Origin: Escherichia phage outra
DNA length: 64,000 bases
Sequence record: MN850645.1
Reading direction: 5' to 3' (one strand)
A program made the position numbers and the translations under genes. The notes below the pieces were generated by a model, which was not told the origin of the DNA, ran no database searches, and saw only the letters and a list, made by a program, of their open reading frames with translations. The stretch's first letter is position 1. Every line of letters starts with the position of its first letter. Positions 5,027 to 59,443 of this stretch are shown in pieces.

Positions 5027-5989
5027 TTAAATTCCAATAACAGTGTTTACACGTTTCTCTTTGCTACGCAAATTAACACGTCCACGAGACAGGCTATTAC
5101 ATGATGTGCATCTTAGCACTTGGAATGTACTAACCGCTGTTGTGTAAACCTTACCAGGAACAACTTCAAGGTGCTCTTTACCGCAACGAGGACAACGAAG
5201 TTTTTCATCGTCATAGAATGCAGATACGTTAGGGTGTTGTGGAATCCACGCACGAAGTTTGATGTAAAGATCTCTAAGAGAAACAACATCACCATCGTTG
5301 TATGTTTGCATACGGAAGAAGGCGTGTCTGTCTCCTTCACAACATGCTTTCCACAAAGGAAAACCTTCATTATCAAGTTTAAAGTTTTCTGTATCAAAAT
5401 ACAAACACATTTCTTTAAGCGCATTAGAAGGTAGTGCAAACTGCTTCTTAGCAGCCTTGAGTGTATCAATTACAACGTAGTGTGATGGTGGCTCCATACC
5501 GTGAAAAGCAAAACGTTGGTTAATATAAGCCTTATCAAACTTAATACCGTTGTGCGCGATCACAATATCTGCATCGTCAAGCAAGTGCCACAGATCTTGA
5601 CATAATTCCCAATCATCTGTATGATCTATGTCAAACAGAGGATAATTGCTAAGGTTCTTACCTTCTACTTCTCCTGTTTCTAAATCAGCAGATGAATAGG
5701 AAAGCAAGTAACCTCGACGAATAACTTGTTCAGGTGCAATAAAGGCTTTGAAACGTGAGAAGCTATACACAATCTCCGGTGCTGTCTCTACGTCAATAAT
5801 TTTAATTACTGGCCCACCTTTATCTTGCGGAGCACCGCGATGCGGTGAATTTACACGAGCTAAGTAATCATTTACTGTGCTCTTCTTAGTAGAACTTCCC
5901 AACACCTCTTGTGCAATCTTACGCGAAGAATAACCTTGTGCTTTCATAGATACAATCAAGGCTTTCTGTTCGTCTGTTAATTTACTCAA
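5027..5989 (-). CDS. DEDDh-type 3'-5' exonuclease with N-terminal HTH and C-terminal zinc ribbon (putative)
   Basis: Exo I-like IIDVETAPE, Exo II-like IAHNGIKFDKAYI, C-terminal CPRCGKEH...CTSCNS; N-terminal SSRKIAQEV HTH-like segment. Confidence 0.5.
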   Translation of the reverse strand: MSKLTDEQKALIVSMKAQGYSSRKIAQEVLGSSTKKSTVNDYLARVNSPHRGAPQDKGGPVIKIIDVETAPEIVYSFSRFKAFIAPEQVIRRGYLLSYSSADLETGEVEGKNLSNYPLFDIDHTDDWELCQDLWHLLDDADIVIAHNGIKFDKAYINQRFAFHGMEPPSHYVVIDTLKAAKKQFALPSNALKEMCLYFDTENFKLDNEGFPLWKACCEGDRHAFFRMQTYNDGDVVSLRDLYIKLRAWIPQHPNVSAFYDDEKLRCPRCGKEHLEVVPGKVYTTAVSTFQVLRCTSCNSLSRGRVNLRSKEKRVNTVIGI

Positions 5990-7020
5990 TGTTCCTCCTG
6001 CTCTGAAATATATGCTTGTAGCATACTTTCAAAAGTTGTTTCATCATTCGCCCAACGTTTCATATATACCAACTGAAAAATTGTCTCTATCCATTCATCA
6101 GTTGTCATTTCTACTTCTTCACCATCCCAAGAAGTAAATTTAACGCCATCTGGGAACCATTCATAATACTGATCTTTAACTGTCTGAAAAAGTTCAGCCT
6201 GTGTTTTACATTTGGAAATAAGATTAAAGCAAGTAATATCTCCAAACTTAACATCGAAATCTTGGTAAGGTCGAATACTATCTGTCTTATCGCCCATTAG
6301 CATTTGATAAGCTAACCAGTAACTACCCCAGCCCTTAATTTCTTTTTTCTTACCTTTTTCTACGATCCAGATATCACCAATAGATTCATCAATCAGAATA
6401 ATACAAGGATTTTTATAAACACCATCCTCTTTATAAAAGTTAAAGAGTAAACTTGGTGTGTGCAAGCTATCTTTGTCGATAGACGCTACAATATGAGAAA
6501 ACTTACCAGTTTCCTTGTAGGCTTTATACCCTGCATATCCATAAATTTCTAAAGCATCATCTGCCTCAATACCAGTAACAACGTCACCGTTATGTTTTTC
6601 AACTAGATAATCTTTAGTATCTGATAAATGGATTGGTCTTAAATCTGATCGTTCTGATTTATATTCTTTTGGCATTTTGAAAGAATGCCGGAAGGTTTTT
6701 CCTACCCCGATGACACCGCAATACTTTTGAAGTTTTAGGTGATCCATCATCTGGGTTATTTTTGTCTTTGCAGCTTGAAACGTAAAAGAAATATTATCTG
6801 GGACTATTTGAACATCTTTTATTTCAAAATCTTCTCTAGAGAACAACTTTTTACCAGCAGCTTCGCGTTGCGCGTTAAGTGCTCCTAACCATCCTCCAAT
6901 ATTTTTTGAAGATTTACCCCAAAAATCTGTTCTTGTTTCAAACTCTTTTACATTACCGGAAGCCTTATGTACAGCGTGGATTTTTCTTTGTTCTAAAGCT
7001 GAAGACGCTTGGAACGCCAC
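5986..7020 (-). CDS. FEN-like 5'-3' exonuclease / flap endonuclease (putative)
   Basis: VTGIEADDALEIYGY resembles the GxEADD motif of T5 D15 / T4 RNase H; downstream SIDKDSL and MGDKTDSIRPY resemble the second acidic cluster and H3TH region. Confidence 0.55.
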   Translation of the reverse strand: MAFQASSALEQRKIHAVHKASGNVKEFETRTDFWGKSSKNIGGWLGALNAQREAAGKKLFSREDFEIKDVQIVPDNISFTFQAAKTKITQMMDHLKLQKYCGVIGVGKTFRHSFKMPKEYKSERSDLRPIHLSDTKDYLVEKHNGDVVTGIEADDALEIYGYAGYKAYKETGKFSHIVASIDKDSLHTPSLLFNFYKEDGVYKNPCIILIDESIGDIWIVEKGKKKEIKGWGSYWLAYQMLMGDKTDSIRPYQDFDVKFGDITCFNLISKCKTQAELFQTVKDQYYEWFPDGVKFTSWDGEEVEMTTDEWIETIFQLVYMKRWANDETTFESMLQAYISEQEEH

Positions 7021-10835: not shown

Positions 10836-11053
10836 TTATACACAAGAGTTTGAATTTCTTCCATCAAGTCTTCAAGATCTGTATCAACATATTCAGAAGA
10901 TGTTGCCATAAAGTATGTAATCATTGTAAACCCTTCCGAAGAAAGGGCATCAAGGATATCATTAAACATATCTTCCATTTCAGTATTCTCACCAAATGAG
11001 AATAACATTTGTTGATCTTCGCTTACACCTTTAACATAGATAGCTGTACTCAT
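10829..11053 (-). CDS. hypothetical acidic protein (74 aa)
   Basis: ORF track only. Confidence 0.35.
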   Translation of the reverse strand: MSTAIYVKGVSEDQQMLFSFGENTEMEDMFNDILDALSSEGFTMITYFMATSSEYVDTDLEDLMEEIQTLVYNW

Positions 11054-11056
11054 ATA

Positions 11057-11377
11057 TTAATCCTTAAGACGTTCATTTAAATCTGCAATAACATCACCTA
11101 AATCTTCACATTCCAGTGTTAATTCGGAAACTTGTCCACTCAAATAACAAACTTCTTCATTTAGATCTGAAATAATGTTTTCTAATGAATCTACTTGGTC
11201 ATCATATGAACGTTTTGTTTCTTCAAGTTCTTCCGTAAGATCATTAATCAAACGGAGCAAAGATAAGATATAACCGTCTCCTGTTTCGTTCCTCCACTCA
11301 CTTCCGTAGCGATAAATAATAATTTCACCATTATCGACTACTGTAAAATACTTACCTTCACCAGAATAAATTTCCAT
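11057..11377 (-). CDS. hypothetical coiled-coil protein (106 aa)
   Basis: ORF track; heptad-like LxxLxxE pattern. Confidence 0.35.
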   Translation of the reverse strand: MEIYSGEGKYFTVVDNGEIIIYRYGSEWRNETGDGYILSLLRLINDLTEELEETKRSYDDQVDSLENIISDLNEEVCYLSGQVSELTLECEDLGDVIADLNERLKD

Positions 11378-11386
11378 ACACTCTCC

Positions 11387-11791
11387 TTATTGTAGCTTAA
11401 GTGAACTGCGAAGACGTTTCTCTTGCTGATCACGAATATGTTGTGGAACCTCGTGAATTGAGTCGTTACCGTGCCTATTTTCAACAACTAAAGAGATAAC
11501 TTGATAACCAAACTCTTCGGCAAGAGTTAAATAAGGTTTAAGTTCTTTCTCTGTGGTTGAAGTGTTAGAGACAATAATCTTTTCAACACCATACTGCATA
11601 TATTTTTGTACTTTGACACGACACCATTGGTGTGCTTTATGGATATTCTCTTCCTTCCACTCATACACACCATCTTCAGTGTAGTGGTATTGATCTGCCT
11701 CACAAATAGGCCAATGATTTTCAGAAATAATTTCTGCTACTGTAGATTTACCTGCGCCTGAAACACCACGTAAAATGATAAGTTGTTTCAT
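11387..11791 (-). CDS. P-loop kinase (polynucleotide/nucleotide kinase-like)
   Basis: Walker A LRGVSGAGKSTVAE at N-terminus; 134 aa; immediately downstream of RNA-ligase-like gene. Confidence 0.5.
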   Translation of the reverse strand: MKQLIILRGVSGAGKSTVAEIISENHWPICEADQYHYTEDGVYEWKEENIHKAHQWCRVKVQKYMQYGVEKIIVSNTSTTEKELKPYLTLAEEFGYQVISLVVENRHGNDSIHEVPQHIRDQQEKRLRSSLKLQ

Positions 11792-12724
11792 TTAGCCTCC
11801 AAAGAAGTTTTCTATTTCTTTACGTCGCTCTTGTGGATCTAGAGCAGCCCATTGAACCTTCGTAAAATTATTTCGAAGCCATTCTAGCAAAGTATAATAT
11901 TCTTCGTCAACAATTTGTTTAGCATTTTTTGGGTTGTCCCAAATCATATCCCACTTCTTATTGCCACCACGCATAAGGAATTTCTTAGCAAGATAGTATG
12001 GTGACTTAATCTTTAAGAGTAAGTTAAACGGATAGTTTGTTTCACGAACAACAAAGCCTTCGTGTCTACAATGTTTAGACATTTCAACAACATCTGAAAA
12101 TTTAATCATCGGATAAACTTCAGGACGTTTAAACTTTGTAACAGATGCAATCCCATCAAGAACACCTTCAGGTAACATGAAACTTGTCCCATCAAGATTT
12201 TGAATTCTTGCTCCAATTAAGTATGCGCCTGGTTCTTCTTCGACAATATGTGGATCAGAAGGATCACAGATTTCAAAAAGGAAAGTTGCTTTTGCACTTT
12301 CTGTCCACTTAATGAAATACTCTATGTCGTCACACTCGGAAACAATACGGTTCTTTGCCATAATTGCAAAATCTGATTCTAGGCTCCCTGTTGTTGATAC
12401 AACAAGTTTCCCTTTGTACACACCTACAGATGCCATAAAACCGTTTACTTTACGGACAACATCTACAATTTCGTCTGCTGGAAGATCTGTACCATTTTCA
12501 AAACGATTAAAGATTTTAGTAAAAGGCCAAATAACAACATTGTCTTCTGAGTCAACAACCAACCCACGACAATCTAGAAGTCGTTTGTCAACGTTCCACA
12601 AATTATCCCAGAATACATTGTTTTTGTATTTAAGCACAGCAAGACCAGCATACTCTCCAGATTTAACTTCTTTTTTATGCACTAAACCTTTTGCAATCAG
12701 GTCATCACAATTGAACTTAGCCAT
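11792..12724 (-). CDS. RNA ligase-like nucleotidyltransferase (Rnl2-like, putative)
   Basis: Covalent nucleotidyltransferase motif I KVNGF (KxNG); 310 aa; flanked by phosphoesterase and kinase. Confidence 0.45.
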   Translation of the reverse strand: MAKFNCDDLIAKGLVHKKEVKSGEYAGLAVLKYKNNVFWDNLWNVDKRLLDCRGLVVDSEDNVVIWPFTKIFNRFENGTDLPADEIVDVVRKVNGFMASVGVYKGKLVVSTTGSLESDFAIMAKNRIVSECDDIEYFIKWTESAKATFLFEICDPSDPHIVEEEPGAYLIGARIQNLDGTSFMLPEGVLDGIASVTKFKRPEVYPMIKFSDVVEMSKHCRHEGFVVRETNYPFNLLLKIKSPYYLAKKFLMRGGNKKWDMIWDNPKNAKQIVDEEYYTLLEWLRNNFTKVQWAALDPQERRKEIENFFGG

Positions 12725-45584: not shown

Positions 45585-47660
45585 ATGAAACAGGCTATTT
45601 TTACTGTAACTCGAAATACGAGAGTAAATGCCAGTTCATTCAGCTATAAGACCGTCGATGGAACGGCGGTCGCTGGTAGAGATTATGTAGCTAAACAGGG
45701 AACAGTAACGTTCCCTTCTGATGCAGATTCTGCTACTGTAGTGGTTGATGTATATGAACGTCCGGCAAACTCTTTAGATCTTTATTTTACTCTTGAGATT
45801 ACTAGCATAAGTCAAAATAACATGATGATCAACGAAGAAATTCGTTGTGTTATTACGACTGATCAATCGAATACAACCCCGCTAACTTGGCCTGTTGTGA
45901 AGTCTAGAATGTTTGATCCTAAGTTTTGGACAATAGATTCTCAAGCAACAGAAAGTTGTTCTATTATCTCTAATGGTGATTCTTTCACAGCAAGAATGGT
46001 TAATAGGACAGTGGCTGGTCTTGCTGGGATTATTTGGTCAACTTACGATAAATATGATCACAAAGGATTAGGCTACCAAGAACATTCTGACTTAAGTAAA
46101 GAGAAACTTTGGTTTAAAATGGAACTTAGTCAAGGTGTTCCTGGATTAAAAGAAGAAAAATTAATGCCATCCTTAACAGTGACACTGAAGGATGAAACAG
46201 TTCATTATGTATCTCTAAACTTTTATGCAGAAGAAGTTTCAGAGGACGGTAAAACAGCAATAATCAAATTAGATTTCTCAAATTTAAAATCTGGGCCAGA
46301 AAATGATATTGTTGTTGACACTACACAGATAGATAACATGTTCTTCTCCTTGATTTCCGCAAGGTATCAAGAAATTGAAGATGTTATACCAGTAGACAAT
46401 ATAGATCTTTCCTTTAAGTTTACCATACTAGAGCCTGATACTGGTTACAGTATGATGAATATGGGTAATTTAAATGTTCCGGCGCACACCATAAGAATGT
46501 GTACATCTTATGATGATATGTATAACCTAACACCAGAGCGAGTTATTTCTAACACCTATAGATTAGGTTATAGAGATATGATTAACCATTATAATGGTAT
46601 GTCACACTATTATCAATTTAGTTGGGATGCCGGATCTAATAAATGGGCTTTGAATAGAACAGAATATTTAAACCCAGCAACAGAAGCCTGGTTTGATAAT
46701 TTCCACGCTAATGCAAAAGCTATGGGCTACACAGTAATGAACTCCTTAAGTTTTGAACTTATGAGTACAGTGTGTCCTGTAGAATGGGTACAACATACTT
46801 GGAATGATGATCTGGCTGCTACAGGTTATGAGCCACCAAGTTATGTTTTATCTCCTTCAATTGATGAAGGGATGAATTATTTACAAGGTGTAATAAATAA
46901 GATAGCTTCTATATCCGCTGCCAATGATCTTCCTGTTATTATTCAGGTTGGTGAACCGTGGTGGTGGTATAACACAGCTACCAATCTACCGTGTATCTAT
47001 GATTATACAACCAAAGTTGCATTTAATAATGAAACTGGGTTATATGCACAAGATGTTGGTACAGTTAAGAATTATAAAACTGGTACACCATATGATGAAT
47101 ATTATGCATTCCTATCTAAAACATTAGGACTGCGTGTTGCTAAATTTGCAACAGATACTAAATTAGCCTATCCTGGAGCTAAAGTTACATTATTACCATT
47201 TGTGCCATCCATTTTAGGTAACGGTATGATGGAGTTTGTTAACTTCCCTAAAGATCATTATATCCCAGAAAACTTTGACTTTTATTGTTCAGAATGTTAT
47301 GACTGGTTGTTGGAAGGTCAGATGGAAAGATCTTTCGACGCTATCAAAATACCTAATGAGCAACTAGGTTTTAGTTATGATAAGATACATTATCTTGCAG
47401 GGTTTGTTCCAGATGCAACTCTAGCACCATTATATGGCTTTGATCCTGAATCAGACTACAGAACATATTTGTGGAAAATGATTATAGGTAATATTGTATT
47501 GAATGACCAGAAGTTTGTTGGTTTGTATCAATACATATGGGCTTATCCACAAATTATGGCAGATTCATTAACTGTTCTTAATTCAAAATCCCAAGTTTTT
47601 TATATGGGTAACGTACCTCTGAATGTCTTTTTACAAGATACAGTATATGTTTCTTCTTAA
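45585..47660 (+). CDS. large tail/baseplate protein (691 aa)
   Basis: ORF track; aromatic-rich GEPWWWYN segment; function unknown. Confidence 0.4.
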   Translation: MKQAIFTVTRNTRVNASSFSYKTVDGTAVAGRDYVAKQGTVTFPSDADSATVVVDVYERPANSLDLYFTLEITSISQNNMMINEEIRCVITTDQSNTTPLTWPVVKSRMFDPKFWTIDSQATESCSIISNGDSFTARMVNRTVAGLAGIIWSTYDKYDHKGLGYQEHSDLSKEKLWFKMELSQGVPGLKEEKLMPSLTVTLKDETVHYVSLNFYAEEVSEDGKTAIIKLDFSNLKSGPENDIVVDTTQIDNMFFSLISARYQEIEDVIPVDNIDLSFKFTILEPDTGYSMMNMGNLNVPAHTIRMCTSYDDMYNLTPERVISNTYRLGYRDMINHYNGMSHYYQFSWDAGSNKWALNRTEYLNPATEAWFDNFHANAKAMGYTVMNSLSFELMSTVCPVEWVQHTWNDDLAATGYEPPSYVLSPSIDEGMNYLQGVINKIASISAANDLPVIIQVGEPWWWYNTATNLPCIYDYTTKVAFNNETGLYAQDVGTVKNYKTGTPYDEYYAFLSKTLGLRVAKFATDTKLAYPGAKVTLLPFVPSILGNGMMEFVNFPKDHYIPENFDFYCSECYDWLLEGQMERSFDAIKIPNEQLGFSYDKIHYLAGFVPDATLAPLYGFDPESDYRTYLWKMIIGNIVLNDQKFVGLYQYIWAYPQIMADSLTVLNSKSQVFYMGNVPLNVFLQDTVYVSS

Positions 47661-47671
47661 GGATCTCTAGT

Positions 47672-47917
47672 ATGAGAAAATTTTTAATAGGTATGTTTTG
47701 TACATATCCTGATAATAAAGTCAGTTCTACTAAAGTTTGGAATGCTATTGGTATGATTGTTATGTCCAGTATGTTTATTTATTTGGGAATTGATAAAGAA
47801 ATTCCTGAATGGATGGGCTGGGCTTTTGTTTTTATGATCACACCATCCAGACTAATGAAGAATTTAATAGATTTACGTTGGGGCAGATCACCTGCCCCTG
47901 ATAAGGAGGATAACTAA
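47672..47917 (+). CDS. small membrane protein (81 aa, two hydrophobic segments)
   Basis: IGMIVMSSMFIYLGI and WMGWAFVFMITP hydrophobic stretches; embedded in baseplate cluster. Confidence 0.4.
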   Translation: MRKFLIGMFCTYPDNKVSSTKVWNAIGMIVMSSMFIYLGIDKEIPEWMGWAFVFMITPSRLMKNLIDLRWGRSPAPDKEDN

Positions 47918-49404
47918 TGGCAGATTATGGTTTAACAGATGCTGGTTTTGTCATTCCAACGTTTGATGATATTCTAAATAATTATATGACAGCATTGAAA
48001 AACACTTTCGGTGCAGATACAGCTACATCTGAAGATACTGTCTTTGGTCAACTGTTTCGTATTATTGCATATACAGATTACACCCTTTGGGAAGGTATGC
48101 AAGGTGTTTACAATACCCAAACCTTAGATGGTGCAGAAGGTATTTACCTTGATGAAATTTTCTCTAAGAGAGGTTTTTATCGTAAGGCAGCTTCTGCTGG
48201 TAGTGGTTATGCTTATGTTAAATCTAACAATAAGGCAGCTTGGACTTATGAACTAAGCACCGATGTTTATTTTAATGCCGATAACGATTTGACATATTAT
48301 GTCAGTGCACCAACAATGTTGAATGCTAAGATTGGAGCATATACCATTTCTAAAGCAAACGCAACAGCTTCTGGTGAAACTTCTATTACTTTCTACATTC
48401 AAAGTGCTATTGATGGTGGTCTTAACAGTAAAACACTAAGTCCTAGCAATACAAACTTTATTTTAGATCTCACGAATTTCATTAAAGCTAACGTATCAAC
48501 AACAGATCGTGCTTTAGTATGGAATGATGCCAGTAATGTTTACATGGGTTATAATCCAGAAGATAATGTTAACCCAATAGGTCTAGTAACACCAGTGAAA
48601 TTTTACGCATCTATTGCAATTGGTACAAAATGGAGTGAAATCCCAGTTACGTGTTCAGACGTTGGTTATAATCCAGTAGGTACAGAAAGTATTACAGGTA
48701 TTTCTTCAACGTTTACAGGCTTTTTAGATACAGGTAACTTCTATCCATTCTCTCCAGGTACGGATGTTGAAACAGATGCAGAATTCCGTTCTCGTTTCAA
48801 TGATAATATGGATGAAGCTAATGCTGCTACTCGTGCTGCTATTGTTAAAGCTCTGCTACTGACAGATGGTGTGACAAAGGTTAAGATTTATGATAACCCT
48901 ACACTACATGATCAGGAACATGCTCCAGCTATGACATTCCAGACTATTGTGTATGGCGGTACAGCAGAAGAAGTTGCACAGGTTATTTATAATACTAAGC
49001 CTATTAACACCTTAACCTATGGTACAACAGCAATTACTATCGTAACAGAAGATGGCGGTCAAGAAGTAATTCGTTTTTCTCCTGGTGACAATGCTGAATA
49101 TTCACTTAAACTAGTATATCAAACTGGCAATGGTAGTGTATTAAGTACAACAGAAAGAGAAAATATTGTTTCTGCTCTTTCAAATCTACAGGCTTATTTT
49201 GAGTTAGGTTCAACAGTAACTAACGATCAGATAAAAGGTGTAATTTATTCTGCACTTGCGTTCGGACGCTTGACTTCTCTCCGTGTTTATGTTAAACTTA
49301 ATACTGAGGATGACAGTAAATATAATGAGGGAGATATCACTCCAGCGTACAATGTTGTACCATCCTTTGACCTTGATAATATTTCCTACGAGTACGGAGT
49401 CTAA
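47917..49404 (+). CDS. baseplate J-like protein
   Basis: 495 aa; N-terminal MADYGLTDAGFVIPTFDDILNNY... typical of gpJ/gp47-like baseplate proteins (recalled pattern). Confidence 0.5.
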   Translation: MADYGLTDAGFVIPTFDDILNNYMTALKNTFGADTATSEDTVFGQLFRIIAYTDYTLWEGMQGVYNTQTLDGAEGIYLDEIFSKRGFYRKAASAGSGYAYVKSNNKAAWTYELSTDVYFNADNDLTYYVSAPTMLNAKIGAYTISKANATASGETSITFYIQSAIDGGLNSKTLSPSNTNFILDLTNFIKANVSTTDRALVWNDASNVYMGYNPEDNVNPIGLVTPVKFYASIAIGTKWSEIPVTCSDVGYNPVGTESITGISSTFTGFLDTGNFYPFSPGTDVETDAEFRSRFNDNMDEANAATRAAIVKALLLTDGVTKVKIYDNPTLHDQEHAPAMTFQTIVYGGTAEEVAQVIYNTKPINTLTYGTTAITIVTEDGGQEVIRFSPGDNAEYSLKLVYQTGNGSVLSTTERENIVSALSNLQAYFELGSTVTNDQIKGVIYSALAFGRLTSLRVYVKLNTEDDSKYNEGDITPAYNVVPSFDLDNISYEYGV

Positions 49405-49406
49405 AA

Positions 49407-50036
49407 ATGGCAGTGAGTGTTGACCATGTGACAACGTGGGATAGTATCAATGAAGATGTTAAAGACCTACTGATTGAAGATTTTAAATCTTCTCCGAACA
49501 TTGTCAAACTACTCTATATCATTTCTAGCGAAAAACAAAAGATAGATCAGGCAATGATCTATCTTGCCAAACACCGCTTAATCTCTACTGCAACTGGTAA
49601 GTATTTAGATCTTATTGGTGAAGAGATGGGGATGGAAAGAAATGGTGCTACAGATGAAGAGTATCGTACAATATTAAAAATCAGGGCTTATCGTGTTGCG
49701 TCTTCTGGTACGCGAGATGATATCATTGATATGTTCGCTCGTTTTACAGGAACAGAAAAAGAAACGATTAATACATACGTTGGATTAAATAAAACATTCG
49801 ACGTATTCTTTTATAATTTGTGTCTACAATCCGATCAGGCAGTAGCACAGTTACTTAACGTTTTCCCGATCCTAAGTAGTTATCGCTTAGGTGCGAAAGC
49901 GGGTGCAGCCTTTGGTTTCACTTCCTATTATGCCACAACTCCACCTCATGGTATAGGTGGTTTAGGTTCTCTTTACACAGAGGCTGAAGGAGATGATACA
50001 GGGCGAATGACTATGCTGATAGCTCAAATAGAATAA
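49407..50036 (+). CDS. baseplate/tail protein (gpI-like, putative)
   Basis: 209 aa immediately after J-like gene. Confidence 0.4.
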   Translation: MAVSVDHVTTWDSINEDVKDLLIEDFKSSPNIVKLLYIISSEKQKIDQAMIYLAKHRLISTATGKYLDLIGEEMGMERNGATDEEYRTILKIRAYRVASSGTRDDIIDMFARFTGTEKETINTYVGLNKTFDVFFYNLCLQSDQAVAQLLNVFPILSSYRLGAKAGAAFGFTSYYATTPPHGIGGLGSLYTEAEGDDTGRMTMLIAQIE

Positions 50037-50049
50037 GGAGTTACTCTTA

Positions 50050-51033
50050 ATGGCAAAGCCACAATACTACCCTGACTGGGCGACACAAACAGTAACCCTC
50101 CCAGGAACGGGAAACACAAACAAGATTAGACCAAAAGAAACCATCCGTAATGTTGGTATGGACTTTGGTCAGATTATGACTTGTGAAGAAATGAACTGGA
50201 TCTTAAACAATATTGGGTCTTGGATTCGCTATATGCAAGATGAATTCTTCCCAACATTGCCTACTACATATCTTCCTATAGTCGGTACTAAAATTACAAT
50301 GGCAGGTGATGCTACAGGTGAAGTCACATGGAATGGTAATGCTGCTGTAACATTATCTATTCAAGTAGTAGATAACAGCCATAATCACTTATCAGCTAAC
50401 ATTACAGACGCAACATCAAACCAAGTTGTAGGGAATGTCCTTGTTAAGCGTGATAATGGTGGTGCTATCTATGCAGGTGATATTTACACTTGTGGTACAG
50501 GTGCTACAGATCCTGCAACATTATTTTTTAGAAACTACAACGGACAAACAGTAGGTAATATGTCCTCTGAACCAGGTGCAGGTGGTCAACTCTATATTTA
50601 TAGAATGAACCCATCAACTGGAGGAACATCTTGTGCAGTCCGTTTATATGATGCAGGTTATGTTTTAATAGACAACCCTCGTTCTAATTCTGGTCAAGAT
50701 ACTGGTAATGGTAATGCTCTTGTAAGATTAGACTATCTTAACTCCAGACTAAACTCATTGCAAAGCACACTGCAAAATAATATTAACAACGTTAATAGTA
50801 ACTTGCAAGGCCAAATTAATAGCATTAACAATAGAGTTTCTTCTGTTGTGTCTGCTATCCGTCTTGGAACACGTATCCAAGCTGGTGTATCTGAGTCTCG
50901 TTTCTATGCTGGTCACGTGATCACAGGTTGGGGTTTTGGTGACAAGAAAGAACTTCGTGGTGCTTGGTATTGGTCAGCCCCGCTACAATATTATATTAAT
51001 GGTAGCTGGATAACAGTAACCAACGTTTCGTAA
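50050..51033 (+). CDS. tail fibre protein (short)
   Basis: 327 aa, Gly/Asn/Thr-rich, NxxNxxLQ repeats; follows baseplate J/I genes. Confidence 0.45.
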   Translation: MAKPQYYPDWATQTVTLPGTGNTNKIRPKETIRNVGMDFGQIMTCEEMNWILNNIGSWIRYMQDEFFPTLPTTYLPIVGTKITMAGDATGEVTWNGNAAVTLSIQVVDNSHNHLSANITDATSNQVVGNVLVKRDNGGAIYAGDIYTCGTGATDPATLFFRNYNGQTVGNMSSEPGAGGQLYIYRMNPSTGGTSCAVRLYDAGYVLIDNPRSNSGQDTGNGNALVRLDYLNSRLNSLQSTLQNNINNVNSNLQGQINSINNRVSSVVSAIRLGTRIQAGVSESRFYAGHVITGWGFGDKKELRGAWYWSAPLQYYINGSWITVTNVS

Positions 51034-51603: not shown

Positions 51604-51945
51604 ATGGAGCTAACAGAAGTATGGGATATCGCTAAAGAGGCGATTATCCCTCTTATTGGCGTAATCTGGGTGGTCTTCAAACAGAAGATAGATGATATGG
51701 CAAGTGATTTGGATAAAATGGAAGACAAATACCGCGAACTAGAAAAGAAGTTGGTGTTTGTTGAATCCACTTATGCTACCAAAGCAGAACTTGCTCAAAT
51801 GCTTAACCAGATCAACTCTACATTAATGGCAAATAATACTGCCTTAGAACAGAAGATTGAAAAAATAATGGATTTAAAAAATGCTCCTGTTCAATTAATG
51901 CTAGAGGAGATTACAAAGCGCACACAAAGTAAGGACAAAAATTAA
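51604..51945 (+). CDS. small coiled-coil protein (113 aa)
   Basis: N-terminal hydrophobic segment plus heptad-rich region. Confidence 0.35.
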   Translation: MELTEVWDIAKEAIIPLIGVIWVVFKQKIDDMASDLDKMEDKYRELEKKLVFVESTYATKAELAQMLNQINSTLMANNTALEQKIEKIMDLKNAPVQLMLEEITKRTQSKDKN

Positions 51946-54359
51946 TGGCGAATTTTCCAACATATCCTGCTACGACACTAGAACAAGGTGTTGATCTGGT
52001 TATATTCTCGTCTAACCAGATGCATGATGTTATTAATGGAGATGCTACAGCAACTGTAGAAACCGAAACAGGTTTAATACCTACACTGCGTAAAGCACTT
52101 GTTGATAACTTCTTCTTTAAGAGTCCTGTTGCTTGGTCAGCAGGATCAACTGAAACTGTATTTAACCAGTTACGTTATTTTGAAAACGGTATCTTGAGTG
52201 GGTACTATTATGCCCCATCTGCCACTACTGCTAACCCTGTACCTATGCAGGGCACACCTGTAGGGGATAGTAACTGGACTCTGTACGCTCTTAAAACTGA
52301 ACAGTTAGCTTCAGATGTGTATCCTTGGTATTTTAAAGGTGCTACAGGATATGAAACAGAAATCAGTCCTCCTTATATCTTTGATAATGCTATTGTCACC
52401 ATTAACGGTGTAATTCAGATTCAAGGTGAAGCATTTACTATCAAAGATAGTAAAATTATTCTGGCAGAACCATTAGGTTTAGATCCGTCTACTGGTCTAC
52501 CTAACAAATTGTTTGCTTTTATTGGTAAAACAACAGCCTCTACTTCTTACGTAGAGAAAAACCTTTTGTCATCCACCACTGGTGCAGCAATGGTTGGTCT
52601 TCCATCTGGAGGCAACCTGTTACAAGCTCAATACTTTGTAACGCCTGAGCAGTTTGGTGCAATTGGTGATGGAGTTACCGATGATACTCAAGCAATTTTA
52701 AAAACCATTACTTTCGCTAACACGAATAACATTCAAGTACGTGCAGATAAGAATTATAGATTCACAAGCTCAATTGCTATGTCTGGTATTCGTTGGTATG
52801 GTGGTACATTCACTGGTAACGGTGGAACAATGATTTCTACTGTGTCCTGTTGGATGGAAAACGTTCGCTTTGAAAAATGTTATGTTAAGATGTTAGGTGG
52901 TGATTGCCGATTCTATCGTAATATCTTCTCCAACGCAACATCTACAGCAGCATTCTTAATGCAAGCAATGACAAGTGAAGGTACGTTGGACTTCAGTTAC
53001 AACGAAATGTATGGTTGTAAATATGCGATCCTGCAACAAGGTACTGGAGAAGTAATGACCTACGGGCGTTACTCTAACAACTATATTCACGATATTAAAG
53101 GTGATGCTATTGAACTTAACGTAGTTCAAAAACACTACACTGAAGGTTTGATTATCGAGAATAACCACATTGCTAACGTAGATGCTTCTGGACAAGGGGC
53201 AAACTGGGGTATTGGTATTGGTGTAGCAGGTAGTGGCCCATATGGTGTTGATGTTCCTGACTCACAATATGTACGTAATTTCAGTATCGTTGGGAATAGG
53301 GTTTACAATTGCCGTCAATGTCTACACGTTGAAATGGGTAAAAACTTCACAATACGTGATAACGAAGTTTATCCTAACACAGCAGTTTCAACAGGTACAG
53401 GTTTAACTACTTGTGGTGTTGCATTATACGGATGCCAAGATTTTGAAGTTGATGGTTTAACTGGTTATCTGCTTAATGATCCGTCTGTTTCAACACGCAT
53501 GGTCTTTATTGACTGGGGTGTTAACAGTGGAAGATATGCGGGGCCACCAATTAACTTTACAATTAAGAATTTGGATATTCCAGAATCTTCAATTGAGATT
53601 GCAACGGCTGGATCAGATGCCTGGGAAAACTCTACAATTGTTAGTAACATCAATTGTAATGTTTTTAAATGGCGTGGGCTACCATCTAGCTCTACCTTTA
53701 ATAATATTCGTTGCCGTAGTATTGACTTTATTGGTCAACACGGAAGCGGAGAAGGAAGTGGTGGCGGTTTCTATACTCGCAGCCAATTCACGTATATGAA
53801 GTGGGTAGGATGTACAGCACTTAGCGGAGATGAAACAACAGTTTCTTTTGCTAAAATCTACACTGATCGTTGCGATCAGGTTGGAAATAACTTTGGTGTT
53901 CCAACTGCTGTTGATGGTACAGGTCATCGTGGGCCAGTTTTAACTACTATTTCTGAACAATATTTTACAGCTTATGATGAATTCCCAGGTGGGCGTGAAT
54001 TCCCTACTGGAACAGTTATTCATTGTGCAAGCGGTAAAAAACATGTTGTTACAGTAGGTGGTGCTTTCTTTAGTGCCAACGAGAAAATAAAAGCAACTGT
54101 TACAGGTCAAACCTATCTACAGTCTAATGCTTTAAACTGGGCTAGTAATGGCTACGCTAAAGCAGCAGGTACTAAGATTGTTATTCCAGGTGCAGGTGCA
54201 AATGGCGGCGATCTTGTGACAACTATAGCACGTGCTACATACGTGACAAATAGTTTGTACACAATAGATATTGCAGATCCAATTGTAACACCTACAGCAG
54301 AGAATACACAAATTAAAGCTCTGAATCCTGTTACTTTTGTTACTGTCAATAATGCTTAA
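51945..54359 (+). CDS. tailspike with pectate-lyase-like right-handed beta-helix (putative depolymerase)
   Basis: PEQFGAIGDGVTDDTQAIL signature of pectate-lyase-superfamily tailspikes; 804 aa. Confidence 0.6.
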   Translation: MANFPTYPATTLEQGVDLVIFSSNQMHDVINGDATATVETETGLIPTLRKALVDNFFFKSPVAWSAGSTETVFNQLRYFENGILSGYYYAPSATTANPVPMQGTPVGDSNWTLYALKTEQLASDVYPWYFKGATGYETEISPPYIFDNAIVTINGVIQIQGEAFTIKDSKIILAEPLGLDPSTGLPNKLFAFIGKTTASTSYVEKNLLSSTTGAAMVGLPSGGNLLQAQYFVTPEQFGAIGDGVTDDTQAILKTITFANTNNIQVRADKNYRFTSSIAMSGIRWYGGTFTGNGGTMISTVSCWMENVRFEKCYVKMLGGDCRFYRNIFSNATSTAAFLMQAMTSEGTLDFSYNEMYGCKYAILQQGTGEVMTYGRYSNNYIHDIKGDAIELNVVQKHYTEGLIIENNHIANVDASGQGANWGIGIGVAGSGPYGVDVPDSQYVRNFSIVGNRVYNCRQCLHVEMGKNFTIRDNEVYPNTAVSTGTGLTTCGVALYGCQDFEVDGLTGYLLNDPSVSTRMVFIDWGVNSGRYAGPPINFTIKNLDIPESSIEIATAGSDAWENSTIVSNINCNVFKWRGLPSSSTFNNIRCRSIDFIGQHGSGEGSGGGFYTRSQFTYMKWVGCTALSGDETTVSFAKIYTDRCDQVGNNFGVPTAVDGTGHRGPVLTTISEQYFTAYDEFPGGREFPTGTVIHCASGKKHVVTVGGAFFSANEKIKATVTGQTYLQSNALNWASNGYAKAAGTKIVIPGAGANGGDLVTTIARATYVTNSLYTIDIADPIVTPTAENTQIKALNPVTFVTVNNA

Positions 54360-54400: not shown

Positions 54401-56362
54401 GTGATTTTAACACGTCCAAATAGTGCCATTGCAGACATGGTAGAGTCTCGCTATAGAAAGCGTAGAAGTTTTGCAAGTGGTTTTACCTTAAGAGATGCTC
54501 GTGAAGCATTGCTCTTTGAAACTGACGGTAACTACTATCAGTGGAAAGGTTCTCTACCTAAAGTTGTACCTGCTAACTCTACTCCTACATCTACTGGAGG
54601 TATTTCAGATACAGCTTGGAAAAATGTGGGTAATGCAGATGACATTGCTCAAATAGAATCAGAATTAGATGCTATTGAAGCTGAAATTGAAGATCTTAGA
54701 GAATCCATTCCAGAAGCTGGTAAATCAGCTTACCAGATTGCCGTAGACAATGGTTTCCAAGGTACTGAGACAGAGTGGTTGGCTTCTTTAAAAGGTGATC
54801 CAGGTGCTCCATTAAAGCTGCTAGGGACGCTATCTAATACCAACCAATTACCTACAACTGGAAACAATGCAGGAGATGCATGGATTGTAGGCGAGAATAT
54901 GTATGCTTGGGATGGTACTGCTTGGAGAAAAGTAAACTCACAGGGGCCAGAAGGTAAATCAGCTTATCAAGTTTGGCTTGCAGCAGGAAACCAAGGTACA
55001 GAACTAGATTATCTTGCTTCAATTAAAGGTGATAAAGGGGAGCCTGGCCCAGAGGGGCCACAAGGTGTACCAGGTAACAATGCTAATGGTTTTGATTACC
55101 AAGGTGCAGCTAATTCCGTTTCAGATCTTCCTTCTGCATCTCCTGGAAACACATCTCAAGCATGGAGTATTGGTACATATCTATACGTGTCAAACGGTGT
55201 AGAATGGATCAATATGGGTGCTATAGTGGGGCCAAAAGGAGATAAAGGCGACAAAGGAGATAAGGGTAACACTGGTGATTCAGCTTATCAAGTCTGGTTA
55301 AACGCTGGTAACGTTGGTACTATTGACGAATATATTGCCTCTCTGAAAGGAGAAAAAGGTGATAAGGGAGACAAGGGTGATCAAGGTGAGCAGGGTATAC
55401 AAGGCTTGACGGGGCCAACTGGTGCAGGGTTGACCATTATTGATATTCTGACTGACACTTCTGAACTACCACAAACTGGAGAAGATGGTGATGGTTATCT
55501 GATCAATAATGAACTTTGGGTTTGGTTGCAAGGAGCCACACAGTGGACAAATGTTGGTCGTTTAGCTGGTACTCCAATCACTGCAAAAGGACACGTTGCG
55601 TCTGCAAGTGCACTTCCTCCTACATCCAATTACGGTGATGCTTATCTAACGGAAGACACAGGTCATCTTTACATTTACACCTATGATGAACAAACTCAAA
55701 CTGCTGAATATGTAGATATGGGCAGTTTGAAAGGTGATAAGGGTGAGAAAGGTGACGCTGGTACTAACGGTACAGACGGTGCAACTTGGATTGTTAAAAC
55801 AACAGATCCAATCTCTAGTGATGGTAAACAAGGGGATTATGCCTTTAATATCTCCACTGGCGAGGTGTTCTTAAAAACATCTGCAACTGTCTGGACTTCT
55901 CAAGGTACACTACCTAGCATTACAGATGCACCTAGTGACGGTAAGATCTATGCTCGTAAAGATGGAGCATGGGAAGAACTCACCAGTTCTGTAGATGGTC
56001 AAGATATAGTTCCAACAAAAGTAACAACTAATTTTATAGAGGTTACAGCATATACCAACAACTCTGTTACAGGTGACTGGACACCTCCAGGAACACATAA
56101 CATGAATGTGTTGAATCTTACTGGTAACTCTACTATAAAAGCATGGCCTGGTGTCGAAGATAGCACAAAACCTAAACCATTCTCTGCAATAGTTTATCTT
56201 ATCCAAGATGCCACTGGAGGTCGTACTGTTACTTTAGATCCATCTTATAAAGTAATTGGTTCTAGTGATATTAATACAGATCCTAACGGAGTAACAATAC
56301 TACAACTAACATATTGTGGTGTTGGTGATTACGTGGATGCTATTGTTGCTAAACGCACATAA
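54401..56362 (+). CDS. tail fibre protein with collagen-like G-x-x repeats
   Basis: GPKGDKGDKGDKGNTGD, GEKGDKGDKGDQGEQGIQGLTGPTG, GDKGEKGDAGTNGTDG; 653 aa. Confidence 0.55.
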   Translation: MILTRPNSAIADMVESRYRKRRSFASGFTLRDAREALLFETDGNYYQWKGSLPKVVPANSTPTSTGGISDTAWKNVGNADDIAQIESELDAIEAEIEDLRESIPEAGKSAYQIAVDNGFQGTETEWLASLKGDPGAPLKLLGTLSNTNQLPTTGNNAGDAWIVGENMYAWDGTAWRKVNSQGPEGKSAYQVWLAAGNQGTELDYLASIKGDKGEPGPEGPQGVPGNNANGFDYQGAANSVSDLPSASPGNTSQAWSIGTYLYVSNGVEWINMGAIVGPKGDKGDKGDKGNTGDSAYQVWLNAGNVGTIDEYIASLKGEKGDKGDKGDQGEQGIQGLTGPTGAGLTIIDILTDTSELPQTGEDGDGYLINNELWVWLQGATQWTNVGRLAGTPITAKGHVASASALPPTSNYGDAYLTEDTGHLYIYTYDEQTQTAEYVDMGSLKGDKGEKGDAGTNGTDGATWIVKTTDPISSDGKQGDYAFNISTGEVFLKTSATVWTSQGTLPSITDAPSDGKIYARKDGAWEELTSSVDGQDIVPTKVTTNFIEVTAYTNNSVTGDWTPPGTHNMNVLNLTGNSTIKAWPGVEDSTKPKPFSAIVYLIQDATGGRTVTLDPSYKVIGSSDINTDPNGVTILQLTYCGVGDYVDAIVAKRT

Positions 56363-56365: not shown

Positions 56366-56390
56366 AAGCCCCTTCGGGGGCTTATTGTTT
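56366..56390 (+). terminator. hairpin terminator
   Basis: AAGCCCC-TTCG-GGGGCTT hairpin. Confidence 0.45.
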
Positions 56391-56401
56391 AAGGAGATTA
56401 A

Positions 56402-58288
56402 ATGTATCCTATTCCTTTATTTATGTCAACAACATCAGCTTCAGTAGTAACAGCTACATCTATAACCACTTCCTCTATTGGCATTGCAATAGTTGGTAGT
56501 AAAAAACAACTGACATATACAGTTACACCCGAAGATGGTGCGTTATTTGATATAGCTTTTTCATCTTCAGATAATACCAAAATGGTTATAGATAATAATG
56601 GTATGATGGAGTTTGTTGCTGAAGGTGGTTTTGATGCAATAATGACAGCTAAAAATAATTTAGGTGCTGTCTTAACTGATCAATCTGGTGGTTATGCTTC
56701 AGAATTAAGTGTGTACACTGAAAGTCTATCGGCTATGGATGTAGGCACTACTCAACAGTTGGTTGCTACAATCAGTCCAGAAGGTGCTAAAGACCTTCCA
56801 GATATGGTAATTACATACACCACAACAGATCCAGAAGTAGCTACTGTAAGCCCTACAGGATTAATAACTGCTCTTAAAGATGGCAATTGCCGTATAGGTT
56901 GTACTGCAACGTATCAAGGAACAGTTGTGGCCTCTGATAGTTCTTATTTAGGTGTTAATGCTATTCCTGTTATTTCTAATGTAACAGCCGTGGCAAACAG
57001 TTATGGAGACGTTCGTGTTGCTTGGGATGTAACTGATCCACTAGACGGTGATACTTATACTGTAGAAGTATTAGATTTAAGTGATAATAGTGTTCAGTGG
57101 ACTACAACAACCACGAATACTTACGCTTACTTTGATATCTCTGACTCTATTCCTCTTTATGGGTTTGCTCCAACATACCTTAAAATTAGCGTTAAGAGCA
57201 CCAAAGCAGCAGCCGTTATCTTTAATAACTCAATAGCTACAGATGATTCGTTCATTAAAGAAGTTATTGTCTTTGCTGGACAAGATAACGTAAATGCACA
57301 CTTTACAGAATTATCTGGTGCAAATAAAGCAGTAATGAGTAGCACAACAACCCGTAATGCATATGCTACGCAACGTGGTTTAGCAAATGCTGAAGTTCTT
57401 CCGTTAAATACAGCTTCTGGATCATCAGCAGCAGATAAATATGCTGACGATAAAGCTGGAACAGGTACACCAGACAACTACTGGTATGATCTGGATAACA
57501 CAGCAGATGGGCCATGCTTAACTAACTTTATCACTAAAGTCACACCTTATGCAAGTAAGGTTAAAGCAATTATTTGGGGACAAGGTGAAAATGATGCTGT
57601 ATCAGCATCTTCGACTGTTGCAGGTAGGTACAGTAACACTACACGTTACCATGATGCTACGATAGCTATCTTTGATAAGATGCGTACAATAGTTCCTGCT
57701 TCTCAAGCAAAAATTGTTTGGCAGATCCTAGGACGTTCTTATTTATATGGTGTAGAAGTTAATGGTGTGGATTGGCAGAAGTACAGAAATGTACAAAGAA
57801 CCATCTCTACAGCACGTGATGATGTTATCATTGGTTCTTGGGTAGATGGTGCTGAACGTTACAGTGGTTATGTTTATGAAGAAGGTATTGATGGTCGTAT
57901 CCATTATATTTCTTCTGTATATCAAACAGCAGCTACAAAACTTGCTAAATCAGCAGCAGACGGTACAGATTTAACATCAACACCACCTGTTTGGGTTGAT
58001 ATGTCTGTTCCAACAGGAGGAGCCGCTGTAAGACAAGCTAACCAAGATGCAATTATTTCTTGGGAACCAGCAGGATATACCAAACATTACTTCCGAAATG
58101 TAAACGTCCTCACAGCAGCAATTCTTACAGAACAAACTCTTGATACTAACACTTACACATTTACTTATGCAGATCAGGTTGAACAATACGGGTTTGCAGC
58201 AGGTACAGCAGTGTTTGATGTTGCACACTATGATGCTGATAATGACGTGTTATCACCTCTTGTCAGATTTACAGTCAATGTTACATAA
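56402..58288 (+). CDS. tail protein with Ig-like N-terminal region and SGNH/SASA-type esterase-like C-terminal domain (putative glycan deacetylase)
   Basis: VIVFAGQDNVNAHF (GQSN-like) and IIWGQGENDA (WxQGExD-like) resemble sialate O-acetylesterase/SGNH motifs; N-terminal Thr/Ser-rich beta region. Confidence 0.5.
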   Translation: MYPIPLFMSTTSASVVTATSITTSSIGIAIVGSKKQLTYTVTPEDGALFDIAFSSSDNTKMVIDNNGMMEFVAEGGFDAIMTAKNNLGAVLTDQSGGYASELSVYTESLSAMDVGTTQQLVATISPEGAKDLPDMVITYTTTDPEVATVSPTGLITALKDGNCRIGCTATYQGTVVASDSSYLGVNAIPVISNVTAVANSYGDVRVAWDVTDPLDGDTYTVEVLDLSDNSVQWTTTTTNTYAYFDISDSIPLYGFAPTYLKISVKSTKAAAVIFNNSIATDDSFIKEVIVFAGQDNVNAHFTELSGANKAVMSSTTTRNAYATQRGLANAEVLPLNTASGSSAADKYADDKAGTGTPDNYWYDLDNTADGPCLTNFITKVTPYASKVKAIIWGQGENDAVSASSTVAGRYSNTTRYHDATIAIFDKMRTIVPASQAKIVWQILGRSYLYGVEVNGVDWQKYRNVQRTISTARDDVIIGSWVDGAERYSGYVYEEGIDGRIHYISSVYQTAATKLAKSAADGTDLTSTPPVWVDMSVPTGGAAVRQANQDAIISWEPAGYTKHYFRNVNVLTAAILTEQTLDTNTYTFTYADQVEQYGFAAGTAVFDVAHYDADNDVLSPLVRFTVNVT

Positions 58289-58292
58289 ACAA

Positions 58293-58320
58293 AAAGGAGC
58301 CAATAGGCTCCTTTTCTTTT
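58293..58320. terminator. bidirectional rho-independent terminator between convergent genes
   Basis: AGGAGCC-AATA-GGCTCCT hairpin flanked by A-run and T-run. Confidence 0.6.
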
Positions 58321-58323: not shown

Positions 58324-58755
58324 TTAATCAGTGAAAATTACGCTCACATCTTCTTTAGAGAAGAGTTTATGATCTTCACCTTTTGTCTCAAGAGTTTCAT
58401 ACAGGTTAAGAAGTTCTGAAACATCTTTCTCTACTAGTTTCTTCAATGTTGCAATTTTCTGTTTGCGATTTTTAATACGTTCAGCTACAACCTTACGTTG
58501 GTATCCGGCAGTACGATAACCTGAGAAAGTTACACCAGTGAGACTTGCAGTTACAGGATCGTAATGACGTTCAATCTGAAATTTATTAAAAGGTACAGCG
58601 TCATCACGAATAATCTTACCGCCATTACTTACTTGACGAAGACCAGTAACTTGTTCTAGTCGTGCCATAGAAATCTTTGGAGACAGACCAGAGTCCAGGT
58701 TCATACCGTTGTTAATCAGTGCTTTCAGGGTGATTTTGCTGTTCAGTGTACTCAT
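58324..58755 (-). CDS. hypothetical protein (143 aa; start may be Met18 at 58704)
   Basis: ORF track; overlaps methyltransferase 3' end unless internal start is used. Confidence 0.4.
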   Translation of the reverse strand: MSTLNSKITLKALINNGMNLDSGLSPKISMARLEQVTGLRQVSNGGKIIRDDAVPFNKFQIERHYDPVTASLTGVTFSGYRTAGYQRKVVAERIKNRKQKIATLKKLVEKDVSELLNLYETLETKGEDHKLFSKEDVSVIFTD

Positions 58756-59443
58756 TTAGTCGTTCCTCCGCTTGCTTAAAAATATTTACATCGGCTTCAC
58801 AGCCTAAGTATTCTCTACCTGTTAAAAGTGCCGCAACTTGTGTTGTTGCACTTCCAGAGAAGAAGTCTAAGACTACATCTCCTTCGTTGGTATGTATATT
58901 AATAAGGTCACAAAACAAAGTCAAGTGTTTTTGTGTCGGATGAAAACGATCTGCTCCTTGATAGATAGGATACTCAAACACACCCTTGTGGTAGGAGGCA
59001 TTGAAGGTTGGCTTAGAACCTTTAACACAAACAATAGCCATCTCTTTAGCGTTACTAAGGTAGTTAACACCACTGTTGATGGGTACAGGGTTTGTTTTAA
59101 TCCATTCAATAGTACGGAACATACGAAAACCAAGCGGTTCAAGGATTTCACGTAGCTCCTGGATCTTCCAGATATCATACCAAACTATGCAAGTACCACC
59201 TTTTCTAAGCACCCTATAGGCTTCTTTGAATACTTCTTTAAAGTAAGGAATATCTACAACATCCCAATCCCCAAAGTTGTAAGATACACGGAATCTATCT
59301 GTATCTTTTCCAGTAGGCTCTCCAGATTGAAAATTTGTGTCACGAGAAATAGCATATGGTGGGTCAGTAAGAATCAAATCTACACTATTGCTTTCGAGGG
59401 TTTGCAGGTAGTTTAACGCGGTGTTGTTTACAAATTCGCTCAT
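58712..59443 (-). CDS. DNA N6-adenine or N4-cytosine methyltransferase (beta-class)
   Basis: DPPY catalytic motif near N-terminus and DFFSGSATT AdoMet-binding motif near C-terminus. Confidence 0.7.
   Translation of the reverse strand: MSEFVNNTALNYLQTLESNSVDLILTDPPYAISRDTNFQSGEPTGKDTDRFRVSYNFGDWDVVDIPYFKEVFKEAYRVLRKGGTCIVWYDIWKIQELREILEPLGFRMFRTIEWIKTNPVPINSGVNYLSNAKEMAIVCVKGSKPTFNASYHKGVFEYPIYQGADRFHPTQKHLTLFCDLINIHTNEGDVVLDFFSGSATTQVAALLTGREYLGCEADVNIFKQAEERLNEYTEQQNHPESTD

Follow-up and report, generated by a model that had tools for sequence, protein, structure and literature searches.

Domains of the SGNH hydrolase fold are already known from phage tails. Esterase tailspikes and fibres such as G7C gp63.1 (4qnl), those of Possum and Moo19/B2, and the petal domain of epsilon15 carry this fold on the adsorption apparatus of phages that target surface polysaccharide. 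Enzymes of the SASA/CE6 type (PF03629; 1zmb, 2apj At4g34215, NanS 3pt5) share two hallmarks, a Gln beside the nucleophile and an (H)QGE motif in block III, which jointly form an 'inverted' oxyanion hole (PMC9487903). A further system is the 'non-contractile tail sheath' protein gp65 of phage N4 (PDB 9lc0, 9yf4), the receptor-binding protein of that phage, which is reported to bind NfrA directly (PMC8669469, PMC12892993) and whose domains form the sheath wall (PMC13434306). Here we analyze a 64,000-nt stretch of Escherichia phage outra (MN850645.1; hereafter the window), a phi92-like myovirus of the genus Justusliebigvirus (Stephanstirmvirinae) with a contractile tail, and within it the gene at 56402..58288 on the + strand, which encodes a 628-amino-acid mosaic protein of the tail-fibre cluster. 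We show that this protein carries a SASA-type SGNH domain lacking the canonical catalytic triad, and that its C-terminal part is a module repeated in gp65, the sheath and receptor-binding protein of N4-like podoviruses. The Ser-to-Asp variant of the SASA type and the tie to the N4 sheath are the new elements. We propose, with a probability of about 0.55, that the gene product is an accessory, mosaic receptor-binding protein whose pseudo-esterase domain would act as a non-catalytic, lectin-like binder.

The protein consists of an N-terminal peptide, two Ig-like (Big_2) domains, an FN3-like domain, the SASA-type SGNH domain and a final FN3-like domain. In the full-length AlphaFold model (pLDDT 88.7), beta-sandwiches at residues ~20-101, 102-188 and 190-277 are followed by an alpha/beta domain at 287-520 and a last beta-sandwich at 538-627. 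The N-terminal peptide, MYPIPLF... (residues 1-19; 56402..56458, on the + strand like all features of the gene), is disordered over residues 1-13 (pLDDT <50). Its motif is kept in orthologs, as MYPIPCF in phage 19-1-2 and MFPIPIF in ESCO5, and it is a putative docking peptide. The Ig-like pair (residues ~20-101 and ~102-188; 56459..56965) matches PF02368 in two stretches with an E-value of 1.9e-13 and 50.6 bits against a gathering threshold of 22.8. Both domains are all-beta with pLDDT >90, and the pair represents a conserved scaffold shared with Phapecoctavirus tail proteins, with 62% identity to residues 411-590 in ESCO5. The SASA-type SGNH-fold domain without a serine nucleophile (residues 279-525; 57236..57976) has an FN3-like domain on each side, since the profile of the C-terminal beta-sandwich also matches residues 189-269 (family profile columns 269-346, independent E-value 2.8e-10). 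The preceding FN3-like domain 'a' (residues 189-278, strands 190-277; 56966..57235) is thus an internal repeat of the C-terminal domain 'b' (residues 530-628; 57989..58285), which forms the C-terminal end of this short allele and for which Foldseek returned FN3 domains and N4 gp65.

The link of the middle domain to SASA enzymes came through relatives and profiles. Searched alone, the protein scored 15.1-16.1 bits against Pfam SASA, below the gathering threshold of 24.8, and neither Pfam nor NCBIfam gave a significant esterase match. With residues 270-628 as the query, a word-indexed protein search gave just 2 near-identical fragments, and the family was recovered by an exhaustive HMMER scan of 1.84 billion representatives, which yielded only 75 relatives of this region. 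The core family profile matches the solved SASA esterases 1zmb (9e-8) and 2apj (3e-6) and the Xanthomonas sialate 9-O-acetylesterase 7kmm (4e-5), and 12 of 22 family members individually match PF03629 at E<=0.01 (best 8.4e-9). Modelled with 21 relatives as the alignment, residues 270-628 adopt the three-layer alpha/beta/alpha, flavodoxin-like SGNH fold with a pLDDT of 94.4 and a pTM of 0.90. A first-pass annotation, made from the sequence alone, had placed an open reading frame (ORF) at 56402-58288 and read its GQDN and IIWGQGENDA motifs (residues 293-296 and 390-399) as SASA-like, with an Ig-like N-terminal half. The frame lies at exactly these coordinates, and the resemblance reflects homology, not chance, as the matches to N4 gp65 (2e-25) and to the 1zmb, 2apj and 7kmm structures and the 12 of 22 Pfam hits indicate. 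The fold it had asked to be checked is present in the model, and the N-terminal half holds the two Big_2 beta-sandwiches described above. The closest relatives that retain the serine (P0005, P0013 and their cluster members) are 35-46% identical, have GQSN intact and occur in proteins of 1100-2270 amino acids. NCBI gives some of these Ser-bearing relatives the name 'non-contractile tail sheath protein'; as a group they are encoded in Xanthobacter and Roseixanthobacter chromosomes, where they are probably of prophage origin.

Active-site positions were placed from secondary structure and profile alignment. In block I (G293-Q294-D295-N296; 57278..57289), Asp occupies the position of the nucleophile, encoded by GAT at 57284-57286. 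Of 58 family copies, 42 have serine at this position; among the 20 sequences of the core alignment, serine is present in all 19 others and Asp is confined to the protein studied here. The family GQSN aligns to G29-Q30-S31-N32 of 2apj, so that the nucleophile Ser31 corresponds to Asp295, and family block V aligns to D235-N-L-H238, pairing D235 with Gly498 and H238 with His501. Ser31, Asp235 and His238 form the catalytic triad of 2apj. Block V of the outra protein (G498-R-I-H501; 57893..57904) has the His that is invariant in the core alignment and a Gly in place of the canonical Asp three residues before it. Both models place D295 precisely where strand beta1 (287-293) gives way to helix alpha1 (295-303), and H501 immediately before the last helix (504-520), which are the canonical SGNH locations for these residues. 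The remainder of the pocket is retained. Block II (G340-S341-S342; 57419..57427), the oxyanion-hole Gly region, aligns with the family GGS/GSS, in which the Ser after Gly is nearly invariant. Block III (W392-G-Q394-G395-E396-N-D398; 57575..57595) carries the SASA-specific QGE, with W, Q and G invariant and E and D at >=90% in the core alignment. Both SASA hallmarks are therefore present, as Q294 and Q394-G395-E396.

The canonical triad is thus missing, with Asp295 for the Ser and Gly498 for the block-V Asp, while Gln294, the block II Gly, Q-G-E and His501 remain. Given established SGNH/SASA enzymology, these two replacements imply that the standard acyl-enzyme esterase mechanism would not run in this domain. 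The first-pass annotation had called for a catalytic Ser-His-Asp, of which only His501 is kept, and had passed over the most telling detail, that its motif reads GQ-D-N instead of GQ-S-N. Deacetylation of O-antigen or capsule as an adsorption step, as it had suggested, is not supported as stated, for it had itself named the absence of the triad as an outcome that would speak against it. The fold, the family and the Ig-like N-terminus from that reading therefore stand, and the triad, and hence the deacetylation, do not. It had also missed the identity of the C-terminal module with the gp65 repeat unit, the mosaic nature of the gene and the loss of the domain in two isolates, all of which are described below.

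Despite the lost triad, the domain is well conserved. Across five intact alleles, dN/dS is 0.064 in the SGNH domain and 0.12-0.15 in the other domains. The SGNH domain is thus the most constrained part of the gene, which argues that selection maintains it. GQDN, WGQGEND and RIHY are invariant in the 5 alleles. At codon 295, the outra gene, four other Justusliebigvirus alleles and the ortholog from phage 19-1-2 (41% identity) all have GAT, which is >=2 substitutions away from any Ser codon. A sequencing error or polymorphism at this residue is ruled out by this distribution. The Asp-bearing sister lineage (phage 19-1-2, P0004) is changed at further catalytic positions; phage 19-1-2 also lacks Gly in block II, Gln in block III and the His. 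The nucleophile position is Ala in one close relative (P0008, GQAN) and Met in another (P0017, GQMN), and several second copies in gp65 proteins have no catalytic motifs altogether. Repeated loss of catalytic residues with the fold kept, as seen in this phage-tail clade, is the mark of a domain that persists for a binding or structural role.

Among proteins of solved structure, the one most similar in sequence is N4 gp65, found at 2e-25 by phmmer against the PDB and at 9e-143 with the profile, and Foldseek aligned the whole SGNH and FN3 unit to gp65 with an E-value of 1e-26 and a TM-score of 0.79. The FN3-SGNH-FN3 part is shared with gp65 and with its counterpart ORF69 of phage phiAxp-3 at ~22-30% identity, and gp65, too, has copies without a complete triad. 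The two proteins differ in their surroundings. The 1382-amino-acid gp65 combines an NCTSP_N domain and a portion of a TIM barrel with two SGNH-like copies and four FN3 domains, pairs with gp64 as a heterodimer and wraps the short non-contractile tail of a podovirus. The outra protein has an Ig-like N-terminus and a single SGNH copy, belongs to a contractile-tailed phage, and has the N-terminal and TIM-barrel parts in a separate gene at 45585..47660 (+), just upstream of the baseplate wedge genes. This second gene encodes 691 amino acids with Calx-beta, NCTSP_N and TIM-barrel_NCTSP domains (PF23844, 5.5e-21; PF23845, 3.7e-81). Pfam gave no match to NCTSP_N or the TIM barrel in the 628-residue protein. 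In tblastn searches of N4 proteins against the window, gp65 residues 428-1062 matched the gene at 56402..58288, and gp65 residues 55-416 together with gp64 residues 107-367 matched the ORF at 45585-47660. The N4 sheath repertoire is accordingly distributed over two genes of a myovirus. The upstream ORF corresponds to the N-terminal part of gp65 and to gp64 on a single chain. In N4 itself (NC_008720), the first SGNH-like copy of gp65 (residues 437-601) carries Ser at the position of the nucleophile (GESQ) and covers only profile positions 10-166 of 233, and residues 16-78 of gp64 match the C-terminal third that is absent there, the block-V His among it (GQIHF; E 4.8e-4). These partial matches suggest that one N4 SGNH domain may be completed in trans across gp65 and gp64, and the TIM barrel appears to be split between the two proteins likewise.

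Host binding by a module of this type has been mapped in phiAxp-3, where residues 795-1195 of TSP (ORF69) were necessary and sufficient to block adsorption and bind a host lipopolysaccharide (LPS) preparation (PMC5862860). This protein is 54% identical to gp65. The module homologous to residues 270-628 of the outra protein occupies residues 719-1083 and the next FN3 domain 1094-1182, so the binding region falls within the same type of module. Moreover, Justusliebigvirus, Vequintavirinae and N4 all depend on nfrB, wecB and the N4 glycan receptor (NGR) in E. coli K-12 (PMC8669472, PMC11990801, PMC11984140), and this common reliance on the NGR pathway makes NGR a candidate ligand.

We therefore regard a binding role as the best account of the locus: a domain so strongly conserved after losing its triad must do something. 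Most likely, it would bind an acetylated surface polysaccharide without cleaving it and so provide reversible attachment, with NGR as one speculative candidate for the ligand. The protein would probably be held on the virion by its N-terminal peptide and Ig scaffold, perhaps on the collagen-like fibre encoded immediately upstream. A precedent is provided by the CE2 esterase CtCE2 (2wao/2w9x), whose SGNH active-site cleft is also used for non-catalytic glycan binding (PMC2661963); CtCE2 differs in keeping its Ser-His dyad and in being a cellulosomal enzyme rather than a virion protein. Several observations weigh against this account. The presence of the protein in the virion is deduced from gene position and homology only. 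Because the phiAxp-3 fragment begins within the SGNH fold, it may not be properly folded, and its reported ligand is an LPS preparation, not NGR (PMC5862860). Within the sensitivity of tblastn, the SGNH module was not found in Phapecoctavirus or in most Vequintavirinae, some of which are NGR-dependent, and the module common to all NGR-dependent groups is the gp64-like TIM-barrel protein encoded here at 45585-47660 (PMC8594841). The assignment to NGR is weak for these reasons, and the upstream ORF is the stronger candidate for the module that NGR-dependent phages have in common. In the literature searched, we found no definition of NGR chemistry, including any O-acetylation. The 'glycan deacetylase tail fibre shared with N4' of the BASEL paper might be taken for an earlier description of the gene studied here, but it refers to the gp64/TIM-barrel protein (PMC8594841); presumably, the ORF at 45585-47660 is the 'sugar deacetylase lateral tail fibre' of that paper.

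A pocket that is intact except for the Ser, a fixed Asp and strong purifying selection would also fit an active enzyme of a non-canonical kind. Such a carbohydrate O-acetylesterase would use Asp295 as the nucleophile, or as a general base that activates water together with His501, and would remove acetyl groups from O-antigen, capsule or NGR during adsorption. An esterase role is what the first-pass annotation had suggested and what the label 'tail carbohydrate esterase' in some GenBank records implies. Gln294, the block II Gly, Q-G-E and His501 are all in place for this, and Asp295 is fixed as GAT, at least two substitutions from Ser codons, down to 41% identity in a domain with a dN/dS of 0.064. 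NanS is a SASA enzyme that works without a block-V Asp (PMC9487903), phages commonly carry esterase tailspikes (G7C gp63.1, Possum, Moo19/B2), and the KMB37 and ALITA records label the gene an esterase. However, we found no SGNH/SASA enzyme with an Asp nucleophile in the literature searched, and substitutions in blocks I and III abolish activity in characterized SASA enzymes (PMC9487903). The Asp-bearing sister lineage represented by phage 19-1-2 has lost the Gly of block II, the Gln of block III and the His, which argues against maintained catalysis, and Ala or Met stands at the nucleophile position of close relatives. An active esterase is therefore unlikely in our view. The protein also departs from the trimeric esterase tailspikes of the G7C gp63.1 type, as it does not show their combination of a catalytic Ser-His(-Asp) with a trimeric spike architecture and an N-terminal adaptor domain. 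From SASA/CE6 enzymes it is set apart by the Asp in place of the nucleophile Ser, by its score below the gathering threshold and by the predicted embedding of the domain between FN3-like domains on a virion protein. We also reject a true sialate-O-acetylesterase that would aid an endosialidase in the breakdown of O-acetylated polysialic acid, since the Ser is missing and the gene is disrupted in the endosialidase-bearing type phage phi92.

At the other extreme, the protein could be a purely structural shaft, spacer or virion decoration, in which Ig, FN3 and SGNH 'beads' supply length and rigidity and recognition is left to the tip of the long alleles or to other fibres. The long alleles do carry a dedicated fibre-tip domain after FN3-like domain b (9occ, 2e-19; RcGTA, 1.4e-12), gp65 domains make the sheath wall of N4 (PMC13434306), phi92 and UAB_1 are viable without the module, and Ig-like domains are typical decoration modules (phrog_215). 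Yet the short allele has no tip and is nevertheless intact and widespread, invariant pocket residues and the lowest dN/dS of the gene would be unexpected for a mere spacer, and the equivalent phiAxp-3 region binds the host; a structural role alone thus seems to us quite improbable. By analogy with gp65, the domain might instead bind a protein receptor, an outer-membrane protein like NfrA, rather than a glycan. The homology to a reported NfrA binder (PMC8669469, PMC12892993) and the lowered Justusliebigvirus infection of K-12 nfr mutants (PMC8669472) would agree with this, although the genetics cannot separate the two ligands, since an nfrA knockout abolishes NGR export too (PMC11990801). The conserved features are, moreover, those of a sugar-ester pocket, and these myoviruses are thought to use the LPS core as their terminal receptor, contacted through short tail fibres (PMC8594841), so we consider a protein ligand very unlikely. 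A broader proposal, which we put forward as doubtful, is that the gp65-type SASA module as a whole is an esterase turned receptor lectin and serves as a determinant, shared by N4-like podoviruses and phi92-like myoviruses, that recognizes NGR or its exporter NfrA. The two halves of the N4 sheath (45585-47660 and 56402-58288) would then have been redeployed as separate baseplate or fibre components. In a still more unusual variant of this doubtful proposal, Asp295 and His501 would form a working and previously undescribed catalytic pair in the SGNH fold.

Justusliebigvirus phages rank with the coliphages of broadest host range and are considered for therapy, yet the matching of their proteins to receptors is largely unassigned; in the 2026 phi92 virion structure, several fibre proteins are not placed. 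Our analysis indicates that the gene is not a plain esterase, so that 'tail carbohydrate esterase' and 'glycosidase', as it is labelled in databases, need correction. The analysis also provides a concrete candidate module for the recognition of a glycan, possibly NGR, with phi92 and UAB_1 as natural knock-outs for comparison. Should the preferred lectin-like role hold, the module would be a compact (~350 amino acids) and probably monomeric binder, reusable for detection or host-range engineering. Should Asp295 prove catalytic, it would represent a new SGNH mechanism.

The gene is mosaic. The positional ortholog of Phapecoctavirus ESCO5 (890 amino acids; locus 3714-6386) shares only the N-terminal peptide and the Ig pair with the outra protein, and an RCC1-like beta-propeller and a DUF285-like C-terminus replace FN3-SGNH-FN3, so the two genes are products of domain shuffling on a conserved scaffold. 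Within Justusliebigvirus, alleles are either short (628 amino acids) or long (939-942 amino acids; PaulScherrer, KMB37, alia, Antha, VivaForever). The ~311 additional residues of the long alleles match the tip of 'tail fiber protein gp17' (9occ, 2e-19) and an RcGTA head-spike fibre (1.4e-12); 9occ is a T7-gp17-like fibre tip, and the extension lies at 10885-11817 of the KMB37 locus. No remnant of it was found in the window. The short allele is intact and widespread, with the best 24 of the 25 listed records aligning through the stop codon. In the last FN3 domain, dS reaches 0.50 compared with 0.06-0.07 elsewhere in the gene, an ~8-fold increase that points to a recombination joint with the long alleles near residue 530. 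Two isolates have lost the module. In phi92 (NC_023693, locus 4958-6620), gene nt 591-808 are deleted (218 nt, out of frame) and there is a second frameshift, giving gp152 and gp153, and Salmonella phage UAB_1 (locus 4958-5735) has a 1112-nt out-of-frame deletion of gene nt 569-1680. These disruptions are independent; each starts directly behind the Ig-like pair, so that an ORF with Ig-like domains only remains. This loss suggests that the module is accessory and dispensable on some hosts, in keeping with a phage group that has several alternative devices for receptor binding.

At the nucleotide level, the gene is 100% identical to those of Escherichia phages vB_EcoM_ESCO8 and ESCO32 and is found at >=80% identity in 57 phage records, and its product is a full-length match to phrog_32204 ('tail protein'). 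Labels vary over more than 50 GenBank records, from 'tail protein' through 'tail carbohydrate esterase' and 'non-contractile tail sheath' to 'lateral tail fiber protein with intimin and glycosidase domains'. As the first-pass annotation had stated, it is the last gene of the fibre cluster, beside a depolymerase-like spike and a collagen-like fibre. The rightward block runs through the baseplate wedge genes (47917-50036), a fibre (50050-51033), a fibre assembly protein, a small lipoprotein-like ORF, the spike, which is a colanidase tailspike (51945-54359; phrog_6117, E 1e-269), and the collagen-like fibre (54401..56362, +). Beyond the stop codon of the gene, leftward replication and methylase genes follow. 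The collagen-like fibre has a gp66/TSP1-type N-terminal anchor (Pfam Tail_spike_N, 3.6e-21; Collagen, 7e-8) and is 60% identical to the ESCO5 fibre over its full length. It contains several G-x-y collagen runs and repeats of a ~45-residue unit (SAYQ...WL...LKG), and it matches Fibritin_C weakly (E 1e-3). The final ~130 residues of this fibre are kept even in the upstream gene of the distant phage 19-1-2. The fibre gene and the gene studied here thus form a conserved pair, which suggests that their products are physically associated. A translational fusion of the two is ruled out by the stop codon, the hairpin and the strong ribosome-binding site between them and by their separate annotation in all relatives. 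This ribosome-binding site, a Shine-Dalgarno AAGGAG at 56391..56396 (+), was read in the sequence 5 nt before the ATG at 56402, and the phi92 record annotates an identical one for gp152. A terminator-like scan and reading of the sequence placed the GC-rich hairpin, AAGCCCCTTCGGGGGCTT, at 56366..56383 (+) in the gap between the genes; its T-tail is weak, and judging by its form it may be a partial terminator or attenuator that could set the stoichiometry of the two products. By the same means, a perfect bidirectional intrinsic-terminator hairpin was found at 58292..58315 (both strands), between the gene and the convergent ORF at 58324-58755.

Two side observations concern the surroundings and the records used for comparison. 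The convergent 143-amino-acid ORF at 58324-58755 (-) lies downstream of, and shares a 44-nt overlap with, a 243-amino-acid DNA methyltransferase-like ORF at 58712-59443 (-), annotated in KMB37 as the methylation subunit of a type III restriction-modification system, and this pair adjoins the fibre cluster in all relatives examined. Four records named as 'Campylobacter phage' (A150, C3, A110a and A145; MG065639, MG065656, MG065689 and MG065645) and 'Serratia phage KKP_3264' (OK210077) are 98-99% identical to E. coli Justusliebigvirus over this locus. Their host labels look doubtful and possibly reflect contaminating coliphages or mislabelling.

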